Part shown: positions 1-63,951 of the stretch, piece after piece
How positions within the stretch are numbered: the stretch's first letter is position 1
How the letters are laid out: every line of letters begins with the position of its first letter
Position numbers and translations under genes: made by a program
NCBI GenBank assembly: GCA_024137785.1
Contig: JAHRHZ010000140.1
Coordinates: forward strand, 34,955,047 to 35,019,046
Length of the DNA: 64,000 nucleotides
From: Ginglymostoma cirratum
Lineage: Eukaryota
Direction of reading: 5' to 3'
Notes under the pieces: generated by a model
The model's database searches: none
Seen by the model: the letters and a program-made list of their open reading frames with translations, nothing else
What the model was told of the DNA's origin: nothing

Positions 1-260
1 GGTCAAAAGTGGTTTTAAGGAACATCTTAAAGAAGGAAAAAGAGGTAGAGATATGGAGAAGTTAAGAGAAGGAATCCCCGAGTTTAGGCCCCAGGTACAA
101 CGTCAAATGTTGAGACAATTGAAATGGGTGATGCTTATGAGGTCAGAATTAGAAATGAGCAGATCTCGAGGAGGGTTGTGGGTCTGAAGGCAATTATAGT
201 AATAGGGAGCTGAGAAGCCCAGGAAGTATTTAAGAACAATTTTAAAATCAGGAACTAGTG
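1..260 (-). mobile_element. L2-clade LINE 3' fragment (degenerate)
   Basis: Minus-strand peptide FKIVLKYFLGFSAPYYYNCLQTHNPPRDLLISNSDL resembles the L2 ORF2 C-terminus (FK.L.GLAP.YL..LL..Y.P.R.LRSS). Aligns by eye with 42960-43240. Confidence 0.65.
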
Positions 261-1511: not shown

Positions 1512-3109
1512 GTATGTTCCAGTCCTTTTGATTTTAACTTTTACATTAATTTGCAATTTATTTAATAGCAGTAGAAGTACAAAACAGGTAGAGTTGTGAT
1601 TTGACATTTCGACCGTGGTCAGTCACTTCACTGTCATCTGTCACACCTTATGTCCTTGGAAATGCATTTATATTTGAAAGGGTTAATCCATCAACCTTGC
1701 CATTATTTTATATTATACTACGGTATTTTCATCCAACAATTTATATTTTAGTTTATCTGTCTTTAATAAGACAGAATATACATGGAAATATCAAGTTAGG
1801 ACTTCTTAGCATATCTTTTTTTCTGATCATCCATGAAGATTTCTTCCACTGATAACCATAGAAATGATCTGGATCATTAACAGTACTGTAGTGCCAAAAT
1901 ATCTTGAGGCTGCTTTTCATCTGTGATATTCCTTCTTCAAGAAAGGACAGTGGGATTTTCTGAGTTATGGAATGATCTTTAAACTGGAGATACTTTGTTG
2001 AGAAGTCGAGATATTGAGGGATGTGAAGATAAGGTAGTAAATTTGGATTTAAAAAATTGTCACTGCTAATAAAAATAATAAGGGTAAGAAGTATTTATGA
2101 CCCAGATAATGAGATTACCTGATGGCAGTTGGTTTGCCTCATGATTTTCTTATTACCCCTGAGGTAAGTGCACCACAACTACAGTAAGCTTTTCCTCTTT
2201 TTGTGGTATAAATATATTCATCCTGAGAAGGGCGATAGAGTTCTGAAGGCCATCTGTAATTGTTTCGATTAGCCCCAGATAGTCCCAGTGTATTGGACTG
2301 ACCTATACCCTTGGAATAAGATAACATAAACTACAAAGGAAACAAATCCTGAAATAATATTTTACTACTTTCCATTTAAGAATAAAATAGTTCTAGAATG
2401 TTGCAGAATACAAAATAACCTTATCTGTTTTAATATCAGTGACTTGTATATTTCTTCTGTGGGCTTTTGAAGTATGTTTCAAGTGATTTTGAGTCACTTC
2501 AGACTGATTCCAGGTCTTACCTGTATTGTTGATATCCATTGATATCAGTGGTGATTCAGTTACTGGTAGTAGGTGACCCCCTTCCCATTGCTGAGGTCTC
2601 TAAATTGTTGGAACAGAGAGGAACATTCACAATGCTGGCCTCTTTTAAAATGAGGAGAAAAGTGCACTGTTCCGGCCACTGAGCCTCTCAAACTGGCAAC
2701 ATGTTTCAATTCCTGTATATTTTTTGAAGAGACTTTGGACTGAAAGAACTTCCTTGATTTTCGTTCTTCCTTAAATATAACACGTCTATCATTTTTGGCT
2801 CATTATGTCATTTCCTTGGACCATGTCAGAAAGATTGAACAATACAAAACTATCAAGCATTCCTAATGTGGTCTAATTACTGACAACAGATACACCAGTG
2901 CTGTTCAATGCTAGATTGATCATTTAACATGGATAGCATGATGAAAAGTTAACCTTCACCTCTTAAGTAGAGTCTGCATTGTGGCTAATGTCATGGCTGA
3001 AGAGAGTCTGATCTGAGATGAGGGGTACAGAACATGGAAGAGATGAGGTTCCAAAACTTTTGAACATGGTACAAAAAGATTTATTAGAAAGGGAAGAAAG
3101 AGGAGTAGA

Positions 3110-3431
3110 GGGCAGCATGGTGGCTCAGTGGTTAGCACTGCTGCCTCACAGCGCCAGGGACCCGGGTTCGATTCCAGCTGTCTGTGTGGAGTTTGCACAA
3201 TCTGCCTGTGTCTGTGTGGATTTCCTCCAGATGCTCCGGTTTCCTCCCACAGTCCAAAGATGGGTAGGCTAGGTGGATTGGACATACTAAATTGCCCGTA
3301 GTGTTCAGGGATGTGTAGATTAGGTGGGTTATAGGGGGATGGGTCTGGGTGGGATGCACTGAGGATCAGTGTGGTCTTGTTGGGCCGAACGGTCTGATTC
3401 TACACTGTAAGGATTCTATGATCTATGATCT
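3110..3431 (+). mobile_element. HE1-type tRNA-derived V-SINE, full length
   Basis: A box 'tggctcagtgg', B box 'ggttcgattcc', V-domain 'ctccggtttcctcccacagtccaaaga', and a CR1-like tail ending (tatgatc)n. Confidence 0.9.
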
Positions 3432-4096: not shown

Positions 4097-4226
4097 TAGA
4101 TATTAGGAGCTGCAGATGTTGGAGAATCTAAGATAACAAGGTGTAGAGCTGGATGAACACAGCAAGCCAAGCAGCATCAGAGGAGCAGAAAAGCTGATGT
4201 TTTGGGCCTAGACTCTTCTTCAGAAA
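4097..4226 (-). mobile_element. Penelope-like element terminal fragment with a degenerate hammerhead-like motif
   Basis: Minus strand 4192-4226 reads ttCTGAAGA-agagtc-ta-ggccc-aAAACATCagc. The adjacent sequence is near-identical (inverted) to the insert at 39365-39448. Confidence 0.65.
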
Positions 4227-4409
4227 CCTTCACAGGTTCATTAATGTCTTTTGGGGAAGAGGTCTTGTTACCTTGCCAAATGTGGTCTTTGTGTGACAAT
4301 AAGCCCATGTTATGTGGCTGCCTTATAAAGGTCTCTGACATGGCATTGCAAGTTGCCCAAAGGATGGGCAACAACTTGCAATCCTGATGATAAACTTGAC
4401 CAAGAATGT

Positions 4410-4944
4410 TATATGCCATTTTGGCCTTCTTATCTGAGGAACAATGTTCTTGCTAGAGAGGGAGTGCAGGGAAGGTTTAGCAAATTGATTCTTGAGATGA
4501 CAGGGCTGACATATGAGGAGAGATTGAGTCAGTTAGGTTTTATTCACTAGAGTTTAGAAGAATAAGGGGTATCTCATAGAAGCTGTTAAAATTCTAACAG
4601 GACTAGACAGGTTAGATACAGGAAGGATAGTGGGGAAGTCCGGGTAATAGTTTAAGTATAAGGAGTAAACCTTTCAGTACTAAGGTGAGAAAAACTTTCT
4701 TCAGTCAGAGAGTGGTGAGCCTGTCAAATCCACTACCACAGAAATTGGTTGCGGCCACAACATTATGTGTTTTCAAGAAGGAGGTAGATGTAGCTGTTGT
4801 GGCTAAAGGCATCAAGGGATATGTGGGGAGGGCAGGATTAGGAAATTGAGCTCGAAGGTCAGCCATGATCATAATGGCTTAGCAGACTGTGGGGAATGAA
4901 TGGCCTACCCCTGTTCCTATCTTCTATCGTCCTATTTTTCTATG
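4410..4944 (+). mobile_element. CR1 LINE 3' fragment
   Basis: Peptide EGVQGRFSKLILEMTGLTYEERLSQLG (CR1 ORF2 C-terminus) followed by a CR1 3' UTR ending 'cctatcttctat...ttctatg'. Confidence 0.88.
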
Positions 4945-5025
4945 ACCTGCTAAAAGGTGCAACTTAATTTCAATAAATCATGGGGAGGGGGAAAATGACT
5001 AGTTTCTTTCAAGAACAATTTCAAA

Positions 5026-5645
5026 GAATCATAGACAATACAAACAGGATAAAGCATTTGGCCAGCTTGCTCCGCCATTCAATAGGATTATAACTGATCA
5101 CTAACTTAGCACTCTGATTCGACTGTTTCCCGATACCCTTTGATCCCTTTAGCCCTAAAAACTATTCAATATTTTGGCCTCAGCTGCTTTCATGGAAGAG
5201 GAATCCACAGGCTCACCAATCTCTGGGTGAAGAAACTTCTCCTCATCTCAGTCCGAAATGGCTTACCCCATATCTTCGACTGCCTCTTGTCCTGGACTCC
5301 TCAGTCATCAGGAACATCCTTCCTGCCTTCACCCTGTCTAGTGATTTTAGAAAATTACGGTTTGTTTGAGATACCCCTCTCACTCTTGTGATTTCCAATA
5401 AATATAGTCTTAACCGATCCATCATGTCTTCATACGCCAGCCCTGCCATCCCAGGATAAATTTTGGTTGCACTCCCTTTGTAGCAAGAACATTCTTCCGC
5501 AGGTAAGGAGACCATAACTGCACACAGTACTCCAGGTGTGGTTTCACCAAGACGCTGTGCAATTGCAGCAACACATTCCTGCGGCTGTTTTGAATCCTCT
5601 CGTTGTGAAGGCCACTATACCATTTACCTTCTTCGTTATGTTACC
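5026..5645 (-). mobile_element. CR1 LINE 3' fragment
   Basis: ORF 5243..5515 peptide PGMAGLAYEDMMDRLRLYLLE...LDRVKAGRMF, with the CR1 tail at the left end. Confidence 0.85.
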
Positions 5646-7122
5646 CTGTGTTTGGTGCATATCTACATCCACAGGTCTAGCAAAAATAATGGCTTGCTAC
5701 ATGTCAATTTCACACATGTAAGCGGCATGCCACAGTAGGCCATCCTGGACTGTACCTATTATATACTCATGTCTGCTTTCCAGCAAGGACAACTGGGTAG
5801 CCACCAGGACCTAATCAGCCTGATTTTCTTCTTCCCACAGCACCAGTGCCAGTGACATCAAAGCCAATTGTAGTCCATTCACTGTCACCTCATTTGAACT
5901 GAATTAAGTCCAAATGGGTCAAGGATTTTGTAGCTTCCTTCTCTGGGTGGCTGAGCTACCCACAATGCGATGCATGCGCTAAATGTTTCTTTGTGAGAAT
6001 GGTGCCCGCACTCTCATTTATTTGATTTTAATTTGTTTAAAAATGTATTATTGGTTAAATTTGTAGAATATTTACTAGGGGGAGAAATCCATCAACTAGT
6101 TTTACAGGTCTGATCATTCTCTAGTCCCTCATCCCACATTACAATTTCATAATCAAATCTGAATGGATGAAACAGTCTTCATTACAGTGTTGTTACAAAT
6201 ATCAGCGTTGGATCACAATATTGAGTAGATTTGCATGTGGTAAAAGTGTGATGTGATTAAGTATTTTTCTTCCTAAGGATCTTCACCTGGTCAGAAGAGG
6301 AATTCACTTGTACTCCCTACCATTTAACTTTGGTATTCAGTTAATATCTTTCAGATCTGGAGCTCCTGTTAATGTTAATCTGTGCTCTTGATGAACTATA
6401 GAAAGATATTAAATGAAAGACTAAAAGGAATTCTTTTCAGCTGTTGGCAATTTCTTAATGAATGACATTTCTTCTCCAAGGTGAAAACGATTTTATTTTC
6501 CTATTTTCTTTGTATGAAAATTTTGCCTCAGATCTCATAAATCCTTCTTCTCCGAGTGCTTCCAAATGCTGGCTTTAAAACACTTAAAATAATGAAGCTT
6601 GGTTTTACAGATGTTTAATAACACTTAATAAACTAATGCATGAAATGGCATATTTTTATGATTGTGTTGTTCTTATTGTGAAGCTGCTGTCCCAAAGCAT
6701 ATGCATGGGGATGCATTGTTTAGTTTTCATGGATTAGATGACAATAGCATACAATATATAAGGCGTGAGCTGACAGGTATAATGAGGCTCCATCTGTGGA
6801 GTGATAGATATCAGAGTTTACTTACAATGTATTGTTTAAAAGCAATTCTCCATTAAAACAACAGAGGCAGTATGCTTAGCAAGCATATATGAATTTTGTA
6901 AAGGAAAATGGGCAAGCATTATTTTTGAAAGAATTTTAGTATTTTGTTAACCATAATATTTAACCTCCGTATGTGCAAAGGAAATGTTCCAAAATACAAA
7001 TGTCTTTGTATGGCTCCTATTATGGCAGTTTGATATGCAATGCTACCATTTTCTAAATTCTGTCATGATCGTAAGAGCACTTGCCTGATGATTCACTTGT
7101 GTGATGGTTATTTTCTTGACAG

Positions 7123-7242
7123 TGCCTTTGACTTGGTGAACATTCATCTTTTCCATGATGCTTCCAATTTAATTGCTTGGGAAACAAGCCCATCTGTCTA
7201 CTCAGGAACCCGACAGAAAGCTCTCACTTACGTACTAGATAG
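7123..7242 (+). CDS. INPP5A: INPP5A-like internal coding exon, 120 bp
   Basis: Acceptor 'ttttcttgacag|' and donor '|gtaaga'. Encodes AFDLVNIHLFHDASNLIAWETSPSVYSGTRQKALTYVLD plus AG, including the 5-phosphatase NIHL motif. Visible inside ORF 7040..7246. Confidence 0.95.
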
Positions 7243-7989
7243 GTAAGAAGGATATATACTTTACATTTTATACACTGAAACCAAGTGACCTCTTAATTTA
7301 GAAAATTATTTGCTTGGATGTGATAGCCAGCACCTAAAAGTCTTTATTTTGTTTGGTTTGCACTGTTGATTGGATCAGGTCCAGGACTGGGAGTTACTCT
7401 TAAAGAGTGTCATCTTCCTAATAAGCATTCAGCATGTGTTCCTTCATTTGATTAGAAGCACATAGCATAATGAGGAAAATCGCATTGAAATTCATCATTT
7501 CTCTATCTGTGTACGATGCCTTGAGATGAAAATAATGTTTGCCCTCTTCCCCTCACCAAAACAAAAAAGCAGATGTTGCCAACTACTTTTCGTGAAGACA
7601 GTATCCCTTTAACTGGAGGTAATTTTTAATGTACTGGTGATATATAATCAGCAAATTGCCAATTGAAAGGCTGCAAGGGGCAAATAGTTCAACATCTTCA
7701 GACTTGTATTGGACTGACTGCCTGTCATACACTCAGCAGATTTAATGCGTACAAAAATCAAACAGAGTGTATAACAGATCAAGCCATTGCTTGTCTCATG
7801 TTCCTCTATAATTGGAAGTTCCACCTGAGGTCTTAAAGCTTTGTTGTCAAGCTTTCTTTCTGAAGTCCCAGTATATCATGGTATTATCAATGCAGTGTGT
7901 AGTGGAGGGGTCAGTGGCACTGACACCATTTATGCCCACCTGGAACAAGAACTCAGCACCTTCTCTGCTGATGTGGCACCGAGCATGTG

Positions 7990-8500
7990 CCTAACATGCA
8001 TTGTTGTACTTGTTGCTCTGCTGCCCAGCCACTGCGCTGCTTCACCAGTTCATTGCACTGTCACTCCACTTCTCCTCTGGCCTGCTGCTCCATTGCCCTG
8101 TTTCTCTGCTGCTCCACTGGCTTTTGTCTCCATTGTGCCACTGCTCTACCACTTTGCTTATGCACTGGCTTGCCACACAGCTGCGTTGCTGCCCGGTTGC
8201 TCCAATGCACCATTGCTCCACTGGCTCACAACTCCATTGATCTATTGTTCCTCCACTGCCCTACCTTCTAGTTCACTACTGTACTACCCAGTCGGCTCAC
8301 CATCTGCTGCCCTGTTGCCCATGGCTTGTTGTCCTGCTGTGTCTCTCTATGCCCCGCTGTCTGTCTGTCTGTCTGCTGATTTTTGTCTCACTGTCCTGAG
8401 GCCTGTTGCCTTGCTGTCTCATTGCTCTACATTCTCACTTTCTCAGTGCTCCAATGCCCCACTGGCTCACCATCCTAGCCCATCTTTTGACTCTCTGCTA
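7990..8500. repeat. Degenerate pyrimidine-rich tandem/low-complexity repeat (ccactgc / ctccactg / ctgctc-like units)
   Basis: Many imperfect 'ccactg/ccattg' and 'ctgtct' units. Low A content gives long open frames rich in L, P, C, A and S. Confidence 0.7.
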
Positions 8501-10629
8501 TAATTGGCCATGTGAAACTTTGATTCTGAGCTAAAATATTAGGCTGGCACAATAAGATCACATAACATTTACAAGTGTGCATATCAGATAAACACTTGAA
8601 AAAGGTCACATTTTATTGTTTCTTTGAATTGCTCAATGGTAATGATAGTCCTAGACTTTGCAGGAAGTTATCTCCTCTGGCAGCGCTGCCATAGGCATTA
8701 TGACCTGCCTGAGTGGTGAGTGTTCCGCTGTAGTTGTAGTGGCAGTAAACACAGCCTTGTCAATGAGTACAACATAAATATTTTTGAAGGAACAGTAATT
8801 CCAGGTTACTCTGTTAGCCTTCACTTTGTGTCTCAAAACAATTAAGCTGAGTCCCTTTTAAATATGGAAATGAGCCAGTAAAAGGCTGAATTCTTTTGGG
8901 GCAGCTTCAATTTTAACAGAGCAGAATGTTTATAAGCATAAAGTAATGAACTGTGTTAAAATTAATAATATCAGCTGCCTTAAAACTTTGATGCTTTTCT
9001 GCAGCTTTTTTTTTGCTAAGAGCAACTTAAAAAAGGCTCAGTTTTAAAAAGGACCAACATGACTACAACCTACCCAAGGTTTTCTTGGCAGAACTTTAGA
9101 CATTCCTGGTCCTGTTAAGATCAGCTTAATTTCTGCCACATATTTTCTAAATGAATTATTCTATCTCTCGAATCCATTCTATCCATTTTGCTTTTGAGAT
9201 TTTAGACTACCTCAGGTGATGATAATGGTTAAACATTAAATGCCCTTGCACTAGATGTTTATTAGGAGGAGTTGAATTGGGATATTTAGCTGGTTTATAA
9301 TCCAATGCTTCTATTAAAAGCAAGAAAATTTCTATCTTTATGTGTCTCCACGTACAAGATGCTGAGAATTTGTTATTCGCTTTTATTGTGGAGTGCCACA
9401 ATAATGAAGTATGGTTGACACTGTGCATACCTACTGTTGCTTCTTTGTACAATGTGAAATGAATGGGCTTACACTGGCATTTAATATCCTCTTTGATCAG
9501 AACCTGTTAGATTTCTTCTGTGAGTTGCTTGCATTTGCTCCAGAATCTTTATCAGTCATATTTTTTTCACGTAGCATTGCAGGCTTTGATCTTAAAAGTA
9601 CCGTTGTGGGAAGGCATGCTAATTCCCAGAAAATACATGATGCAACCCCACCCCAGTGTGCACAGCTCTCACTATTTTCTTGTGGCTGCGAGGCACAAAG
9701 TGCACAAATTCCATTTTGGATATGCAGAGCACCTCATTAATGCAATTAAATCTGTCTCCTACCAATTGACTGGGAGCCCAACTTAACTTTAACTGGTCAC
9801 AGGCCAGGTTTTCCAAAACTCAGCAGCAAAACTGAGATGATAGCTTCTAGAAGGGGCAGTTAAGTTTTTTTTCTTGCAATTCTTGTAGGCTCAGGAGGAC
9901 CATGTGTGCTTCCTGGACGTCATCATCAGCCATCACTCTGCTGATTGTGACGTCTCTATCTCTTTCCCCCTGCCGGGTTTAGCCAGCAGCCCCACACCCG
10001 CAGACTCTCAACCAGCTGTTGGCTGGGAATTGAAATTGAGATATGCTGATGTGGCCTTGCCATTAAATTTTGCTTTTCCATGCTCCTGGATTGCTTTCAC
10101 TCTCCTTCACTCTCTTCGATGTCTTCCTATAAATATTAGAGAAAGGTGCTAGATGCACTAATGATATAGAAGTACTTGTAGAATTCCTGGCCTTTCAGTA
10201 TAGTCTGTGCATCCTAAATTTCTCATTTGTTTCTCTTTTATGCAGTATTAAGGGAGATTACCTCCCTCCATCTTATTTCCACCTAGACAGCATTGACTTG
10301 CTGCTCATTACTATACTCACATGATTAATCTGCAGCACTTAATCTCAAAGAGGCCAATCATTCCCTAAAGAGCCAATCTTAGTCCTGATTTTCAGCAACA
10401 GACAAATTTGAATCATGTTACTGCTGCAAAAACATAAGCCAGTCCCCAAACTGATATTTGATCATTTTAGTGTCTTGTGAGGCTTTTTCATTCAGATTTC
10501 AGAGAGTGTAGTATGTAGATGGTCACTCCCCTGACAGTGGATGCTGCGATGTTTCCTGCTTTATTTAGCTTCGACTTTTCTCATTCTCCTCTTAATTTGT
10601 TTTATTTCTTGATTTTGTTTATGTTTCCG

Positions 10630-11080
10630 CCACCATGATTCAGTTGGTCGCACACGTGCCTCCGAATCACAGGATTCCAGGATTAATCTGACTCCAGAAC
10701 TTGAGTTCAAAAACTAAGGTTGATCCTCCAGTGCAGTACTAAAACAGCAATGCACTGTTCAAGGTGCCAGCTTTCAGATGATATCTTAAACCAAGGCCCC
10801 ATCTGTGCACTTGGGTGGATGTAAAAGGTCATGTGGCACTATTTCAATGAAGAGCAGGGGAGTTATCCCCAGCATCCTGCCTAATATTTACCACTCAACA
10901 GTTTAGCTAATTATTATCACACTGCTACTTGTGGGAATTTACAGAGTACAAATTAGCTGCCTTATTTCCACATTGCAAAAGTGACTGCATTTCAAAAATG
11001 TACTTACTTCATGGTTTATAAGGTACTTTTGAGACATCTGGTTGACATAAAGTGCACTGTATAAGTGAAAGTTTTTCTTT
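10630..11080 (+). mobile_element. Deu-domain SINE (SacSINE1/AmnSINE1-like), near full length
   Basis: Degenerate tRNA head, Deu core 'ctttcagatgatatcttaaaccaaggcccc...ggtggatgtaaaag...ggcactatttc...gaagagcaggggagttatcccc', and an L2-like tail. Confidence 0.85.
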
Positions 11081-11136
11081 TTCCTTGTCTCCCTCATTTC
11101 CAGTGTCAGCTTCAAAAGCATCCATTTCATATCCTT

Positions 11137-11238
11137 GTTCTGAGGAACGGTCACTGGACTCAAAATGTTGACTCTGCTTTCTCTGCACAGCTGCTGCCAG
11201 ATCTGCTGAGTTTTTCCAGTAATTTCTGTTTTCGTGTC
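11137..11238 (+). mobile_element. Penelope-like terminal fragment with a degenerate hammerhead-like motif
   Basis: gttCTGAGGA-acggtc-actg-gactc-aAAAtGTTgac followed by 'gctgccagatctgctgagtttttccag', shared with the copies at 25450, 39340 and 42485. Confidence 0.75.
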
Positions 11239-12049
11239 CATTTCATAATTATATAGATTGAGATTTCCCCAAACAACTTGAGTGAAACTGTCCTGCAAGT
11301 TGTGATGATTATAGAGCACTTTCACTGTTATTGAACAACATGGTGAGTATTGCCTCCATTTGTAGGAAATTGACTCTCAACGAATAGCACAGTTTGAACT
11401 GCTGTTAAAGCATATCAAGCCATGTGCAATGATGACCCCAACTAGTGACAACGATACGCATGTATTGAACTAAAATTGTTCATGGCGCAATTGATTATTT
11501 ATCATTTAGATCTATTCGCAACCAGTTTTCTCTTTGTTCTGGGATTTCTTGTACAAACTGACACAAAAACTCATGTGTCATATGGGCAATTGCAATTAAG
11601 TAAGGTCCCAAAACTATAAAAATCTCAAATTTGACCCTAACCTGAATTTTATGTAAGCAGTTCTCGGTTTAATAGAATTAGGACAGAGTTGGCAATTTTA
11701 ATATGTGTTTTATGAGGCCAGTGCCTTAAATCTAACCTGCTTAGCAGGTTCAACCCGGGCGTGAGAAAACATGACAGAATACTTCTGTGGAGATATCTTC
11801 AGGAAGAAATGAGTGCCTTTATAGCAGCGCTTGTGGGCCAAGAGCAGCAGGACTGTTTCTGCTTATCCATGACCATTCTCCACTTTACCCTACCTTGAAT
11901 CAAAACATTTTTGTATTCAGGTGTCAGCCCCCTTACCCCCAAAGAGCCAAATCTGTCAGTCAGGCATCTTCCAGATGTGCAACCTGCGATAAAAATGCTG
12001 TGTTGTTGATTAAAACATTCTTGTGTAAATGGGGAGGAATCGAGTTGGC

Positions 12050-12190
12050 AACGGAGTGCAAAATTCGAGCTAGGCCGTACAGAGGTAAAGGGTGGAAACA
12101 TCTCTTTCATAGAATGGGCTGTAGAAATCTGGAACTCTCTCCCCATAAACTCATTGAGGCTGGGCCATTAGAGCTGGAAATCAATACTCC
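12050..12190 (+). mobile_element. Short, old CR1 3' fragment
   Basis: Peptide KIRARPYRGKGWKHLFHRMG..WNSLP-like ('tggaactctctcccc'). Confidence 0.55.
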
Positions 12191-12684
12191 CTGACTTGAT
12201 GAACAGCTAAATATATGACTTTCAGGACTTTTGATCATTTTTTGTTCGCAAGGATTTTGCGATTGAATTATGTTAAAGTATTAGGTTTTAATACAAAGCA
12301 AATGTACACAGTTTTGAAAGCTGCAGAACTTGAAGGAATACATTCAAACCAAATGGACTAGATTGTTGATTGCCACAACTGATGTATTTATGCCTCGTTG
12401 TCTCATCTCAAAGCATTATTACTAAGAATGACTTCCATCCACTTTAAGATCAACAGGAAATATTCCCTTTAAAGCCACACTCAGAAACTGTGAGATGTAA
12501 GGGATTGAGTGTGAGCGGAGTCAGAGGTGGAAAATAGGTTTTATTTCAAATCATTAGCAAGGAGAAACCTCTTTATCCAGAGAGTGGTTGGAATGTAGAA
12601 GTTGTTAACCACAACGAATAGCCAAGGCTGCTTGTACTGATGCATTAAAGTAGAAGCTAGATTCAGACTTGATCATGATTCATG

Positions 12685-38700: not shown

Positions 38701-39339
38701 CTATAATTGCATTGAGGGTGGTGTTTTTACACTGGTATTTGTTTAGTCTTGATTCAGGGAGTTTAGTGTCTGTGTGCCAAGCTAAATCTAGCTATTTTAT
38801 CATGGTGGCTGGTTGGATCATAGACCCAGTCTTTTTTTGTCAGTGTCATGCTTTGCTGCTGGGATCAAGAATCTGAATTTAGCACTTTTACAGCTTGACA
38901 GTTGCCAGATTCTGGTCTCCAAAATCCAAACCAATTGGAGGGTAAAGATTGATTTGGACCCACCATTACTGGGTCAAACAGCAAATTTTGAACATCACAG
39001 AAAGAAAAAAGATCTGTTGACTTTTGGGGTAATGAGGAAACAATATTTCAGAAGAAATGTACATTTGGGACAAATAGGTGGACACCTATTGAAAGCTAAA
39101 ATTAGTATAAAAGGGACAAATAATAACATAGAAAGAGATGACAGCATTTGAAAAGTTATCATACAGAGGTGTCATCCATGCATGTTAAAGTCTTTGGTGC
39201 AGATGGTTAGGCTGAAAAAAAGCGTTGCGACAAATATTCTGTGACTGACACAATAAAAGTGAAGACAGAAAATGGGGTCTAATTGTCCAATCATTGGATT
39301 ATGAATCAAATCCATGTTTGATACATAATAAAAAGTGGA

Positions 39340-39626
39340 GCAAAAACAGAAATTGCTGGAAAAGGTGATGCTGCTTGGCCTGCTGTGTTCATCCAGCTCC
39401 ACACCTTGTTATCTCGGATTCTCCAGCATCTGCAGTACCTATTATCTCTTGCTGGAAAAGCTCAGCAGGTTTGGCAGCATCTGTGGAGAGAAATCAGAGT
39501 TAGCGTTTTGGGTCGAGTGACCCTTCCTCAGAATGTTACTCAGAGGTTGCCAGACTTACTGAGTTTTTCCAGCAATTTCTGTTTTTGTTTCTGATTTACA
39601 GCATCCGCAGTTCTTTTGTTTTTTAT
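39340..39626. mobile_element. Fold-back Penelope-like terminal element containing a nested 84-bp PLE-terminal insert with a 12-bp TSD
   Basis: Inverted arms 'aaaaacagaaattgctggaaaa' and 'ttttccagcaatttctgttttt'. 'ttgctggaaaag' is duplicated at 39353-39364 and 39449-39460. Hammerhead-like motif on the minus strand at 39533-39497. Confidence 0.8.
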
Positions 39627-39929
39627 GTAATAAAGTGGAGGTTTGGTGTACAGGAGCTTATTGAGAACTCTACTTCCAACTCCAGGACACACCTTCCAAA
39701 TGATATAAGAGTATTGTGTAGATGATGCTATGGAGAACTTGAACTGTAAAGTGAAGATTTTTAGGACTGCAGAAATAAAGATCTTGCTTTGTGAAATGTA
39801 TTCTGAAACTTCAAGACCATCCACAAGTGCTATCAGAGCCTGCAAATGCCAGATCCTATCCATGTTGTTGAACTCACAATCCTTTGACAGTGCTGGCAAA
39901 TATGAAATATTTTCCTCCAGTTAGTACAC

Positions 39930-40500
39930 TTTTATTCATTTCTAGGATGTGAGCAGTGCTGGCAATACCAACATTTGTTGTCCATCCTAGTTATTCTTGA
40001 GAAAGTGGCAGTAAGCTATCTTCTTGATCCATTGCAGACCAGTAGTGCAGATACTTCTACAGTACTGTTAGAAAGGGAGTCCCAGGACTGTGAAGGAATG
40101 ACAATATCTTTCCAAGTCAGGATGGTGTTTGTCTTGGTGGAGACTGGCCGTAGGCCATATTTCTTTATACCTGCTGCCCTTATCCTTCTTAGTAGTTGAT
40201 GTCATGGGTTTAGTGGGTGCCATTATAAAAAAATTGTGTGGTACTGTGGTGCATATTGTAATTGGTTCCTACCACAGTTGGGGCACTAGTTATGAAGGAA
40301 ATTAATGTTTAAAATGTGGAGAGATGGCTTTAAAGTAGATAAATCTGTCCTGGATGGGGTCACATGTTTTGAGTTGGACTCATTCAGGCAAATGGAGAAT
40401 ATTCCAACATGGTCCTTACCTGTACCTTCTGTCATGTATATTATTTCTCCAAAGGACTTAGTGAAATGGCAGAATGTCATGTGGTAAAAAAATGTCACTT
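39930..40500 (-). mobile_element. LINE 3' end (same family as 35298-35710), degenerate
   Basis: Shared tail 'ttattcatttctaggatgtgagcagtgctggcaataccaacatttgttgtccatcc' and body. Confidence 0.65.
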
Positions 40501-40827
40501 GACCTGCACATTGTAAACCAAAACTTCATATAATATATTTTTCATTGTTCATCAAGACACACATTAGAAAGCATTATACCAGCTGAATTGCCCTGAGAAA
40601 TATAAATGTGATCTGTTTGTTCATGATGTAACTTTTGTTATTTAGCGTAACTTTACCCAAAGTGATCCAGCTTCAAGGGTAAATTCACCAATCCTGTGCT
40701 TCTGGCAGGAGTCACTCAAGATTTGTCTTTGTATCCTTGATTTAACGCAGTTTTGTTATTTTAAATTTAAAAACTTAAGCTAAAAGTATATAGAAAATGC
40801 AAATAAATTTCTCATCCCTCACTCTAG

Positions 40828-40912
40828 GATTACAGATCAACGATATGAGAAGGTACCACACTTCCTGTTTGGTGACTTCAACTTCAGGTTGGATTCTAAA
40901 GGTGTGATAGAG
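40828..40912 (+). CDS. INPP5A: INPP5A-like internal coding exon, 85 bp
   Basis: Acceptor 'ctcatccctcactctag|' and donor '|gtaggt'. AG|G = Arg, then ITDQRYEKVPHFLFGDFNFRLDSKGVIE, which contains the catalytic GDFNFR motif. In frame with the previous exon across a 33.6-kb intron. Confidence 0.95.
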
Positions 40913-41198
40913 GTAGGTGTTATTAATGGACAGAAATTCTACCAGATTCCAGTTCCACCAACATTACAGTTTTTATTCTCTAGTTTCACAACGTTCTCAA
41001 GAATTGGGTTGGGTTTCCAAAAAGGGCAAAACAAAAGTTGAAGTTGAAATGTTAGAGCCAGGAAACATCATATAAAAATTCTTGAGGGGAGATTGGGAAT
41101 TTGAACTCCCTTGGAGCATAATTATCTCAGTTAACCACATTACAGAGGTATCATTGAAATAAACAATTTCCGCATGGCTGTTCATCACTGCGCATTTT

Positions 41199-41609
41199 GC
41201 TGGAGTTCAGATGAATGATGGGGAATCTCATAGAGACATATAAAATTCTACCAGGACTGGACAGGGTAGATGCAGGGAGGATGTTCCCAATGGTGGGTCT
41301 GTCCAGAACCAGGGTCACAGTATGAGAATTTGGGGTAGGTGACTTAGAATGACGATGAGGAGATATTTCTTCACCCAAAGAGCGGAATTCATTACCACAG
41401 GAAGTGGTTGGTGCCAAAACATTGAATGTATGCAAGAGGTAACTTGATCTCGCACTTGGGGAGAATAGGATCAAAGGTTATGGGGAGAAAGCAGGATTAG
41501 GCTGTTGAGTTGGACAATCATCCATGATCGTGAAGAATGACAGAGCAGTCTCGGAGAGCCGAAGGCCCTCCTCCTGCTCCGATCTTCTATGTTTCTATGA
41601 TTCTATGTT
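41199..41609 (+). mobile_element. CR1 3' fragment
   Basis: 'ctcatagagacatataaaattct...ggactggacagggtagatgcagggaggatgttccc', with tail 'ttctatgtttctatgattctatg'. Confidence 0.88.
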
Positions 41610-41894
41610 TAAGTGAAGTGACCATTGACACAATCAGCTCTTGTTTTACAGAGAGAAAATTGTTAGCATTTTTCAAATCATAACAAATGAGGAATCAGCA
41701 GGTTATCTAATTCCCTTCCCACTTTGTTCCAGTTTGTAGACAATGGAATTATGTCATTAGGAAGTTTGTACCACTGGTGGGGGCACTGAACCCTTCTATA
41801 TGTGTGTGCAGTATAATTGATCATTTACAGATAATTTGGGTGTAAAAGAAGATAAATTAAAGAAGAACAAATGGAGTTAAATAAAAGAGAAATT

Positions 41895-42275
41895 GCATGA
41901 TAGGGTAAATAGCCAAGGTCTTTTCCCCACGGTAGGGGAGTCCAAAACAAGCGGGCATAGGCTTAAGACGAGAGGGGAAAGATTTAAAAGGTACCTAGGA
42001 GGCAATTTTTTCACAGAGGGAGTGGTCCATGTCTGGAAGGAGCTTCCAGAGGAGATAGTGGAGGTTGGTACAATTACAACATTTAAAAGGCATCTGGGCG
42101 GGTATGTGAATCGGAAGAGTTTAGAGGGATATGGACCAAATGCTGGCAAATGGGACTAGATTCATTTAGATAACATGATCGGCCTTGGAGGGCCAGGTAG
42201 TGTTGAGGAAGCATGGAAGCTGCAGAAGGACTTGGACAGGCTAAGAGAGCGGTCAAAGAAGTGGCAGATGAACAT
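41895..42275 (+). mobile_element. CR1 3' fragment followed by a short CR1 RT piece
   Basis: ORF 41893..42159 GLFPTVGESKTSGHRLKTRGERFK...WKELPEE, then LQKDLDRL..KKWQM at 42218-42270. Confidence 0.88.
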
Positions 42276-42484
42276 AGAACGTAGAACATAACGGAGGGAG
42301 TCTAGGTCAGCCCACAGCAAAACCCCAAAACAAAGCCAAACCTCTGCCAAATCACAGTCCATCATAAAATTAAATTATTTTTATTTCTGCAGCATCAATC
42401 TGCAGTTCAAAATAAGGCAGGAGAGGACTTTTAGAAATAAGTGCAAGGATTCTAAATACACTCCTTGTTAAACAGTTAGAAACT

Positions 42485-42644
42485 AGAAATAAAAACAGAA
42501 ATTACCAGGAAAACCTCCAAATGAGGGTCACTAGATTGAAACATCAACGTTAGTTTATCTCCAGAGATGCTGCCAGAGCTGCTGAGTTTTTCCAGCAATT
42601 TATGTTTCTGTTTCTGATTTCTATTATCCACAGTTCTTTCTTTT
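42485..42644 (+). mobile_element. Fold-back Penelope-like terminal fragment
   Basis: Left arm 'aaaaacagaaattaccaggaaaa' is inverted relative to 'tttttccagcaatttatgtttct'. Truncated motif gggtc-actag-att-GAAACATC-aac. Confidence 0.7.
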
Positions 42645-53256: not shown

Positions 53257-53566
53257 TAGAATCCCTACAGTGTGGAGACAGGCCCTTCGGCCCAACAAGT
53301 CCACACCGACCCTTGGAGCATCCCACCCAGACCCATCCCCCTATAACCCACACACCCCTGAACACTACAGGCAATTTAGCATGGCCAATCTACCTAGCCT
53401 GCACATCTTTGGACTGTGGGAGGAAACTGGAGCACCCGGAGGAAGCCCACACAGATACGGGGAGAATGTGCAAACTCCACACAGACAGTCACCTGGGGCT
53501 GGAATTGAACCCAGGTCCCTGGTACTGTGAGGCTGCAGTGCTAATCACTGAGCCACCGTGCCGCCC
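53257..53566 (-). mobile_element. HE1-type V-SINE, full length
   Basis: Reverse complement of the 3110 element with intact A/B boxes and V-domain. Confidence 0.92.
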
Positions 53567-53959
53567 TGGAGTGGATAATGGAGTGTTATCTAAGGGCACA
53601 TGGTGAAGGAATTTGAGCAAGTTCACTGCGGATACAGCAGAATGTGGAGTGGTGGGATGTGCTACTGCCCCATCGTCTGACCTTTAGTTTCCCCGTCTCT
53701 TGCCCTGTCAGGACCACTATTGATCACAATTCTCTGTTCATTGTGCATAAATGCTCATGGGGGAGAGGGGACTTGTTTTTCCTTCAAGCAACATTACCAA
53801 AACAACCCAACTCCTTTTAGAATTTGTGAAACCTTGCTGTGTACAAATTAAGTTGCATTCAGCGGTTTGAAAGCGAGTTATTAGCTGTGGTTTGGTTTGG
53901 GGCTCTCCTGTAGATATGTAAATACATGTCTTGTTAATTTTATTCTCCAAATATTTTCC

Positions 53960-54190: not shown

Positions 54191-55086
54191 AATTTCATTT
54201 TGTACTGTCCTTTCCTCATTTTAAAAAAGTGCTCTCTTTAAAGACTTCCATGTTATTTCACTAATTAATCCAGTTTGTTTGCCATTCACCAAGAGGACAG
54301 TGAGTATGAGTGAGGCTAATGTGGCCTCTGATTCCCCTGTTTTCTTATGGAGCCATGTCCAACCTGCAGCCTAAGCCTCTTGATTGTACAGCTGAGATCA
54401 GGATCTTGCAGGCTGTTGATGAACTGCTGTTCCCTTTGTCCTTAATGAAAGCTTGGCAACTGTGCTATAGATCTGGTTTTATGAATAGTTATTATCCTCA
54501 CTCTTATTGAAGCAAAAAAAAATTTCTGCGTGGTAGTACATGAAAACGCATTCAATGAAGTGTAGCAACTTTTTTGGTGGTTTTATTCTATTGTTTTTAT
54601 GCATATGTGTATGTGTTACAGCTGAGACCAGGTCATGACCTTTTTTCATAAATTTGAAAGCAGCCCACAGATCAGTGTTTGCTTCTTGCTGTCATTTTGT
54701 TCTTTTAACATGTAGCAGTGCCCTTTCCCCTGTGCTGTCCAGGCAGATGTTCTTACTTGTTGATTGATTTATTTGGCATAAGGAGGAACCTCTCCTGGGG
54801 GAGGAGGAAGGGGGAATATCTGACAGCTTCAGAGAATTTGAAGTGGGAAGGAGAAAACACCCTTCACAAATCCTACAGTAGGAGGTAATAGTATCTCCCA
54901 GAGGACAGTATGTTAACTCAGTCCACAACCTGATGCCTTGGAAAGAGTTTGCAATCTCATGAACGTTTTAATGTCACAGCTCAATGTTCATCCAAAAAGG
55001 TGTTAAGCATGGAGCAGATAAATAAAGAAAAGCTGACTGAAATGGACTGACGAAAGTTTTAACAATGCTAATGACACTGCATTAGT

Positions 55087-55415
55087 GGGCAGTGCGGTGG
55101 CTCAGTATTTAGCACAGCTACCTCACAGTGCACGGGAGCTGGGTTGGATTCCAGCCTCAGGCTGCTGTCTGTGTGGAGTTCCTCCGGGTGCTCCGATTTC
55201 CTCCCACAGTCGAAAGATGTGAAGGTTGGTTGCATTGGCCATGCTAAATCGCCCAGGGATTTGTCCAAGGATGTGCAGGCTAAGTGGATTGGCCATGGGA
55301 AATGCAGGGTTACAGGGATAGGGTTGGGGAGTGGGTCTGGGTGGGATGTTCTTTGGAGGTAAGTGTGGACCGAATGGGCTGACTGGCCTACTTCCACGCA
55401 CAGAGATTCTATCAT
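55087..55415 (+). mobile_element. HE1-type V-SINE variant with a short internal deletion
   Basis: 'gggcagtgcggtggctcagt', V-domain, and a duplicated 'gatgtgcagg.tag.tggattggccatg' unit. About 27 bp are missing after 'gtgtggagtt' relative to the 3110 copy. Confidence 0.88.
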
Positions 55416-63159: not shown

Positions 63160-63951
63160 AGAATCATAGAGCTCTACAGCATGGAAACAGACCCTTCAAT
63201 TCAACTTGTCCATGCTGACCAGATATCCCAAATTAATCCAGGCCCATTTGCTAGCATTTGCCCATTTCCCTCTAAACCCTTCCTGTTCATATACTCATCC
63301 AGATGCCTTTTAAATGGTGTAATTGTACCTGTCTCCACCACTTCCTCTGGCAGCTCATTCCCTACATGCACCACCCTCTGTGAGAAAAAGTTGCCCCTTA
63401 GATCCCTTTTAAATCTTTACCCTCTCACCTTAAACCTATGCCCTCTAGTTTTGGACTCCACTGCCCTGGGGAAAAGACCTTGACTATTCACCTTATCCGT
63501 GCCCCTGATGATTTTATAAACTTCTATAAGTTTACCCCTCAGCCTCTGACACTCCAGCGAAAATAGCCCCAGCCTATTCAGCCTTTCCCTATAGCTCAAA
63601 CCCTCCAACCCTGGCATAATCCTTGTAAATCTGTTCTGAACCCTTTCAAGTTTCACAACATCCTTCCTATAGTAGGAAGACCAGTTTTGCATGCAGTATT
63701 CCAAAAGTGGCCTAACCAATGTCCTGTAAAGCCACAACATGACCTCCCAACTCCTATACTGAGTGCACTGACCAATAATGCAAGCATACCAAACACCTTC
63801 TTCAATATCCTGTCTACTTGCAACTCTACTTCCAAGGAACAATGAACCTGCCTGCACTCTTTGTTCAGCAACACTCTCCAGGACCTTACCATTAAGTGTA
63901 TAAGTCCTGTCCTGATTTACCTTTCCAAAATACAGCACCTTACATTTATCT
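63160..63951 (-). mobile_element. CR1 LINE 3' fragment (about 790 bp)
   Basis: ORF 63417..63938 LYRTLVRPLLEYC...LERVQNRFTRIMPGLEGLSYRERLNRLGLFSLE, with the CR1 tail at 63160-63210. Confidence 0.92.

Follow-up and report, generated by a model that had tools for sequence, protein, structure and literature searches.

Short modules that carry a hammerhead ribozyme motif and contain no open reading frame (ORF) are dispersed through a stretch of 64,000 nucleotides of the genome of the shark Ginglymostoma cirratum (GenBank assembly GCA_024137785.1, contig JAHRHZ010000140.1, positions 34,955,047 to 35,019,046 of the forward strand), which is referred to in its whole length as the window. A preliminary description of this DNA had listed five such elements and interpreted them as an independent, retrozyme-like system whose ends are set by ribozyme cleavage. 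The modules are almost certainly the terminal pseudo-long terminal repeat (pLTR) and tail modules of three families of Penelope-like elements (PLEs) encoding a reverse transcriptase (RT) and a GIY-YIG endonuclease (EN), and their ends are not delimited by the ribozyme cut.

Modules in the window

All five listed elements were recovered in place by self-BLAST of the window, which groups the modules at E values of 1e-9 to 1e-25 and additionally turned up a sixth, longer module (25455-26057). They represent family A (4098-4226, 39366-39447), family B (starting at 11137, 25455, 39449, 39541 and 42524) and family C (34852-34992), as detailed in Table 1. The element described as a single unit at 39340-39626 was correctly located, but it consists of three pieces, with a family A fragment inserted into a head-to-head pair of family B arms, and the unit as a whole (39341-39632) is flanked by duplicated sequence.

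Table 1. Hammerhead-related modules and host exons in the window.
Feature	Position	Strand	Remarks
Family A solo module	4098..4226	-	Starts 3 nt 5' of CUGAAGA, C3 at 4223; long tail; core changes G12>A and G16.2>A; 13-bp target duplication
Family B solo module	11137..11238	+	Starts 3 nt 5' of CUGAGGA, C3 at 11140; short tail; 11-bp target duplication; sense to host gene
Family B 5'-truncated PLE copy	25455..26057	-	Broken GIY-YIG C-terminal piece at 25875-26060 (tblastn E 1.6e-21), 3' untranslated region (UTR), hammerhead (C3 at 25584), long tail; 10-bp target duplication
Family C head-to-head inverted pair	34852..34992	.	Arms begin at ~34942 (-) and ~34945 (+), each at the upstream edge of a decayed core
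Family B arm with core	39341..39533	-	C3 at 39531; split by family A insert
Family A tail fragment	39366..39447	+	+17 to ~+98, without core; sits in the B arm with a 12-bp duplication
Family B second arm	39541..39632	+	+19 to +110, long tail; head-to-head with 39341-39533
Family B inverted short arm and direct arm	42479-42517 and 42524-42644	+	Direct arm without CUGAnGA; 9-bp duplicated flank
Host exon, presumably of INPP5A	7115..7240	+	Further + strand exons at ~1462 and ~40871

The hammerhead core

A scan of the window against Rfam (E<=5) returned four weak, unrelated matches and no hammerhead family, and the motif was therefore judged by parsing. The parsed motif is a minimal type I core, CUGAnGA-A-helix II-GAAAC-GUH, in all three families, which correspond to the three flanking-sequence subfamilies described earlier; among anchored copies, 89 of 110 could be parsed in family A, 139 of 182 in B and 17 of 32 in C. 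Helix II consists throughout of G-C/G-C/G-C followed by U-A or U-G, helix I comprises 3-5 bp, and loop III is missing. The first pair of helix I is U-A in A (83 of the 89 parsed copies) and B (129 of 139) and C-G in C (11 of 17), and the helix changes between the families are compensatory. The variation noted before in the loop of helix II requires one correction, as the two-nucleotide loops 'ta' and 'at' are more plausibly 3-4 nt long. Minimum free energy folds of one head per family did not recover a hammerhead monomer, and folds of head dimers gave no clean double hammerhead; both are uninformative.

Genome-wide, family A has 62,840 exact intact cores and one variant of family B has 70, with none in the reversed control. 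Every copy in the window carries a damaged core, as had been stated, and the survey described below indicates the origin of this damage. Of its 102 whole cores, 48 are intact (29 when the CG palindrome is counted in), and the dominant changes, G16.2>A (34), C11.1>T (23), C15.2>T (21) and G12>A (17), are all CpG transitions, so that core damage is mostly CpG decay. Selection on the cores was considered and set aside: non-CpG mismatch amounts to 1.8% in A and 4.0% in B against a mean of 10-11% downstream, a downstream value that mixes in subfamily differences.

Membership in Penelope-like elements

When the genome, 4.36 Gb in 289 contigs, was searched with sequence from upstream of the module at 25455, 40 scored matches were returned, namely the window and 39 others at 77-85%, and translations of these matches contain the end of a GIY-YIG endonuclease. 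Twenty ten-kb stretches were picked for long frames. In one of them, L131, an open frame of 813 amino acids matches both RVT_1 (E 5.7e-7) and GIY-YIG (E 5.5e-5) above cut-off, and an intact family A core lies about 260 bp downstream. At L147, a family B element has two pLTRs in direct orientation at a distance of 3.55 kb, which form a 440-bp direct repeat of 92% identity. For family C, sense PLE ORF pieces were found upstream of the module at six of 30 loci (L153, L160, L161, L165, L169 and L173). When short ORF pieces were compared with the domain library, GIY-YIG stayed below cut-off or no match was obtained. Copies linked to an ORF are ordered as core, tail and ORF start, the last about 140-150 nt past the core, and their subfamily sequence is shared with the short copies that consist of pLTR and tail, here called stubs.

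Since families A, B and C all run seamlessly into RT/GIY-YIG ORFs, their assignment as PLE pLTR and tail modules leaves little doubt. The features expected of an EN-bearing PLE were all found: an ORF with RT and C-terminal GIY-YIG, pLTRs in partial tandem, an inverted 5'-truncated copy, an optional tail of 30-40 bp and a minimal hammerhead motif in the pLTR. The connection to PLEs drawn in the preliminary description stands, whereas its independent retrozyme-like system is not supported, the modules being continuous with such ORFs and not tandem units. Translations of L131 and L148 contain a C-x4-C-x2-C linker between RT and EN. A CX2-5CxxC linker at this place defines the Neptune clade, although Nematis has such a linker too (PMC8557442; PMC3846280), and judged by this linker the shark elements probably belong to Neptune. 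Their nearest named homologues, at 75-93%, come from Chiloscyllium, Rhincodon and Stegostoma; these proteins are uncharacterised and bear no clade names. Penelope is listed among the repeats of the whale shark (PMC8455134), and names for the shark families may already have been assigned in Repbase or Dfam.

Minimal hammerheads in pLTRs have been described for the EN-bearing PLEs Neptune, Poseidon and Xena (Cervera and De la Pena 2014, PMC4209133). The shark hammerheads resemble these in being minimal type I motifs with a palindromic 15.2-16.2, no loop III, an extra base before helix II and G10.1-C11.1, and the elements agree in showing mostly single motifs from truncated copies, opposite-strand pairs and an RT plus GIY-YIG ORF. 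That study covers fishes, the coelacanth with about 4,000 and Xenopus with about 9,000, and no shark in the parts of it examined; the present case differs in that a single family has 62,840 or more exact intact cores and that 5' ends map to the upstream edge of the core. A literature search over titles and the starts of abstracts, with most subscription papers outside its reach, returned nothing on shark PLE hammerheads or on strong-stop models of PLE copying; how new the shark families are may depend on the families and species of chondrichthyans that are listed in the supplements of a recent preprint (bioRxiv 10.64898/2026.07.22.740005).

Two further features are common to all three families. 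Arms of the form GATGCTG ... CAGCATC (L207, L240, +20 to +100 past the cut) could pair as a long tail hairpin, and a short ATG frame precedes the start of the main ORF. This region is a candidate protein-binding or RT-start structure.

Ends, target duplications and arrangement

Ends were mapped in an unselected sample of 777 kb without N, comprising 464 kb around the window and 60 evenly spaced ten-kb stretches. A first pass yielded 180 hits, which represent 146 insertions; the 325 kb of spaced DNA accounts for 70 of these. The resulting density of about 190-215 insertions per Mb extrapolates to about 0.5-0.9 million across the genome, a figure that varies with the treatment of masked DNA, and bears out the earlier claim of a very abundant family. 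A stricter pass also used references for older subfamilies, relied on the most upstream end and excluded 20 of 187 hits adjacent to N or to an edge, which left 167.

With coordinate 0 set at the predicted cut, 77 of the 112 copies that reach -25 stop at -40..-25, while the other 35 spread to -900; elsewhere, five 5' ends lie at -2..+3, 29 at -24..-3 and 13 at +4..+25. Two peaks stand out among the 3' ends, one at about +66 and one at +95..110, with 73 ends at +55..80, 76 at +85..120 and 18 elsewhere, and the spacing of these peaks, about 35 nt, is that of the known PLE tail. Ends within 3 nt of the predicted cut are rare, at five of 167 on the 5' side and one of 167 on the 3' side. An apparent secondary 5' peak at the cut, with ten hits at 0..3 in the first pass, shrank to five once N-adjacent hits were removed and references added. 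The proposal that the elements end almost exactly at the motif was right in that the ends are non-random, but the boundary coincides with the upstream edge of the core, which is some 30-36 nt away from the predicted cut, and the stub ends are not set by ribozyme cleavage. This agrees with the anole PLE, for which hammerhead mutations leave insertion unimpaired and no reads begin or end at the cut (PMC11167929). One joint in a single contig of set X17 (L240:2684-2717), where a copy ending at the predicted cut is connected to a new head via a 9-nt inverted piece, might derive from cleaved RNA.

Target duplications of 9-14 bp are common among the insertions. With a threshold of at least 10 matches, they flank eight of 34 solo stubs (0 of 170 shuffled pairs) and 17 of 22 inverted pairs (0 of 110 shuffled), which indicates that at least those stubs were inserted as stubs. 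Inverted pairs combine one arm with a short end and one with a long end in 20 of 30 cases. Neighbouring copies among the 187 hits are head-to-head in 33 cases and direct in four, none of the latter being a clean unit repeat, and one tail-to-tail case was seen in the first pass; by eye, two same-strand core pairs no more than 450 bp apart occur among the first 100 listed of the 62,840 genome matches. Young head-to-head pairs (L132, L282) often have their arms split by runs of about 400 N, and several opposite-strand core pairs in the listed genome matches lie 439-467 bp apart; palindromes seem to break or to be masked in this assembly.

This arrangement fits what is known of PLE insertions, the units of which consist of a pLTR, an inverted 5' copy and an optional tail of 30-40 bp (PMC8557442; PMC3846280). 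Two 3' ends one tail apart, head-to-head inversions and partial tandems are shared with such units (PMC8557442; PMC3846280; PMC11167929), and duplications of 8-10 bp as well as a TATA/initiator-like pair in one pLTR are known from rotifer PLEs. Rotifer solo pLTRs that lack duplications have been attributed to recombination or deletion, whereas solo stubs with duplications of their own are the majority product in the shark.

Host gene, RNA and neighbouring repeats

The + strand carries exons over a span of at least -93 kb to +120 kb relative to the window start; judging by their motifs, they belong to a gene that we take to be INPP5A, a name that a PDB search, which returned no match, did not confirm. 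Hits within the span of this gene are 20 sense and 19 antisense, and its 24 whole cores include four intact sense and six intact antisense copies. In this small sample, intact sense cores are not depleted, and the selection against them suspected earlier is not borne out, the changes being mostly CpG transitions. More than 60,000 intact cores, some of them sense in introns, suggest that, as monomers within host pre-mRNA, these minimal ribozymes have almost no activity.

RNA depth could be obtained from one polyA run (X21, about 24% of which was read), another run (X22) giving 19 reads; among the 22 runs listed, none was recognised as RNase R or small-RNA data. The family B module reaches about 4,600 per direction in X21, the 3' UTR 150-350 and the ORF start about 10, a profile that parallels that of the contig set X17. 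Mate directions are about equal, and reads continue into unlike sequence in 94% (B) and 81% (A) of cases, which fits polyA reads as passengers in host transcripts; small circles would escape polyA selection. In the same run, about 500 reads have a joint back by 466 nt inside the family A ORF start (L240:1951-2416) and about 250 change strand at 2005/2717 of L240, joints that probably stem from a single rearranged locus with high expression. The apparent enrichment of RNA where the family A ORF starts was not accepted as proof of PLE transcription, since these joints (250-500 reads) point to one or a few rearranged expressed loci as the probable source.

The window contains other repeats. A 311-bp direct repeat of 98% identity (13072-13382 and 15182-15492) overlaps a LINE-like repeat family with members at 15030-15350, 21246-21548, 41899-42167 and 63160-63497. 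Short interspersed repeats without a hammerhead lie at 10630-10898 and 15646-15912, a pair that we presume to be SINE-like, and at 3109-3418, 53257-53567 and 55083-55290.

The 5' boundary and its possible origin

Base by base, short copies mostly keep 2-5 nt before C3, and the boundary falls 2-6 nt before CUGAnGA. In family A, the match to upstream element sequence drops from 0.77 at C3-3 to 0.43 at C3-4. Copies that extend further upstream carry a YYANWYY initiator with its A at C3-4 in 45 of 51 cases in A, 63 of 68 in B and five of six in C, and TATA-like words in these copies start preferentially at -29 to -31 from the initiator A. Of 21 family B stubs that start at GTT, 19 show a preceding T at a position that is A in the element (for example L053, L152, L177 and 11137 of the window), often outside the target duplication; this extra T is possibly an untemplated base or a fold-back arm of 1-4 nt. 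Splicing was rejected as the cause of the boundary, given that B and C have CAG at this place but no AG is present in A, and that the AG is retained right after the target duplication in many stubs.

The modules, short insertions of the pLTR and tail of three EN-bearing PLE families, were probably made as run-off cDNAs of the first 100-140 nt of the mRNA. For the anole PLE, two internal RT start sites define the tail, and the minimal template needs ORF sequence 3' of these sites (PMC11167929). RT initiation should accordingly lie near the 5' end of the mRNA, and a first product would run off after about 100 or 135 nt, the two stub lengths. As in the anole PLE in vitro, the element protein would nick the target and start reverse transcription internally at one of the two tail sites. 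The transcript itself would begin at the A four bases before the core, with the TATA-like box at -29 to -31 and the initiator, a step that we rate as somewhat better supported than not. On reaching the RNA end, RT would mostly stop, leaving a solo stub, or alternatively restart on the other strand, giving an inverted pair; less often it would go on into 3' UTR and ORF via a template jump, a circle or tandem read-through RNA. Stubs would be dead-on-arrival copies. One difference from the anole element Poseidon PAc concerns the ORF, which starts at stem II in PAc and about 140-150 nt past the core in the long shark ORF (PMC11167929).

In LTR retroelements, minus-strand strong-stop cDNA is a short first product, synthesis of which begins internally, close to the 5' end of the RNA. 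By analogy, copying of the rest would require a transfer in the shark PLEs as well; unlike LTR retroelements, these have no tRNA primer, LTR or integrase, and the short product would itself be inserted by target priming. A more specific version is offered tentatively and is rather doubtful: helix I would be the very 5' end of the shark PLE mRNA, strong-stop-like first cDNAs of 100-135 nt would have been fixed by the hundreds of thousands, and full copies would depend on a jump to these 34 nt in their 3' copy, bared by the downstream hammerhead cut.

Several observations weigh against the run-off account. The polyA run shows no sharp RNA start, and no site where many molecules begin or end was reported in it; a cap-derived G before the start A was seen in 0 of 14 family B and 0 of five family A copies. 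Among 29 ORF-linked B copies, six start at -29..-36 and 13 extend upstream past the proposed start, so that a jump, a circle or a longer RNA is needed in addition. The boundary is spread over about 6 nt, not confined to a single base, and the promoter-like motifs of the related families A, B and C are not independent. Some of these points suit a different origin of the same PLE stubs, in which the boundary reflects stalling or release of RT at the 5' strand of helix I, or cutting of the element's own pLTR or cDNA by its endonuclease during resolution. The boundary does match that strand, the 13 copies cross it seamlessly, the cap G is missing, and the anole endonuclease favours an ATT site at its own ORF-pLTR junction (PMC11167929), and family A has ATT at the boundary. 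Families B and C, however, have AGT there, a structural stall would be expected on entry into the helix from its 3' side rather than after exit, and the TATA-like word and initiator at canonical spacing in all three families are left unexplained. We consider this origin unlikely, although it is the strongest competitor of run-off from the RNA end.

Independent non-autonomous retrozymes, that is ribozyme-cleaved monomers or circles moved in trans by PLE proteins, would accommodate the more than 60,000 intact cores, the target duplications of solo stubs and the hundreds-fold excess of stubs over ORF 5' ends in read depth, and pLTR-related tandem retrozymes are reported from one chondrichthyan genome (bioRxiv 10.64898/2026.07.22.740005). 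Metazoan non-LTR retrozymes form tandem units of 150-450 bp, carry canonical hammerheads and are expressed as circles (PMC7229834; bioRxiv 10.64898/2026.07.22.740005), and the shark stubs resemble them in being non-coding, dispersed monomers with a type I hammerhead and pLTR-related sequence. They differ in their length of 100-140 bp, in being single or head-to-head, and in having one minimal core each with the cut internal; neither head-to-tail units nor delimitation at the cleavage site nor a canonical type I hammerhead was found. The near absence of ends at the cut, the excess of head-to-head over direct neighbours, the subfamily sequence shared with ORF-bearing copies and reads that mostly run into unlike sequence, with mate directions about equal, make this explanation highly improbable. 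Still less credit is due to random 5' truncation combined with detection bias, or to recombination or deletion that shortened longer copies at a later time. Heavy 5' truncation is a known property of PLE copies (PMC8557442), local alignment ends are imprecise, and the first mapping was made without references for the older B subfamily; yet the 5' peak survived the stricter pass, the family A match falls off within one base, and target duplications directly flank stubs.

Implications

The shark stubs belong to a known kind, the abundant pLTR-head stubs of PLEs, and preserve PLE intermediates in very large numbers as a natural record. This record bears on how the PLE cycle proceeds after internal RT initiation and on the role of the hammerhead. 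The sharp 5' boundary with its TATA/initiator spacing yields a precise prediction of the transcript start and of a strand-transfer step. If true, the strong-stop and jump reading would give the PLE ribozyme a role and would explain the partial tandems.

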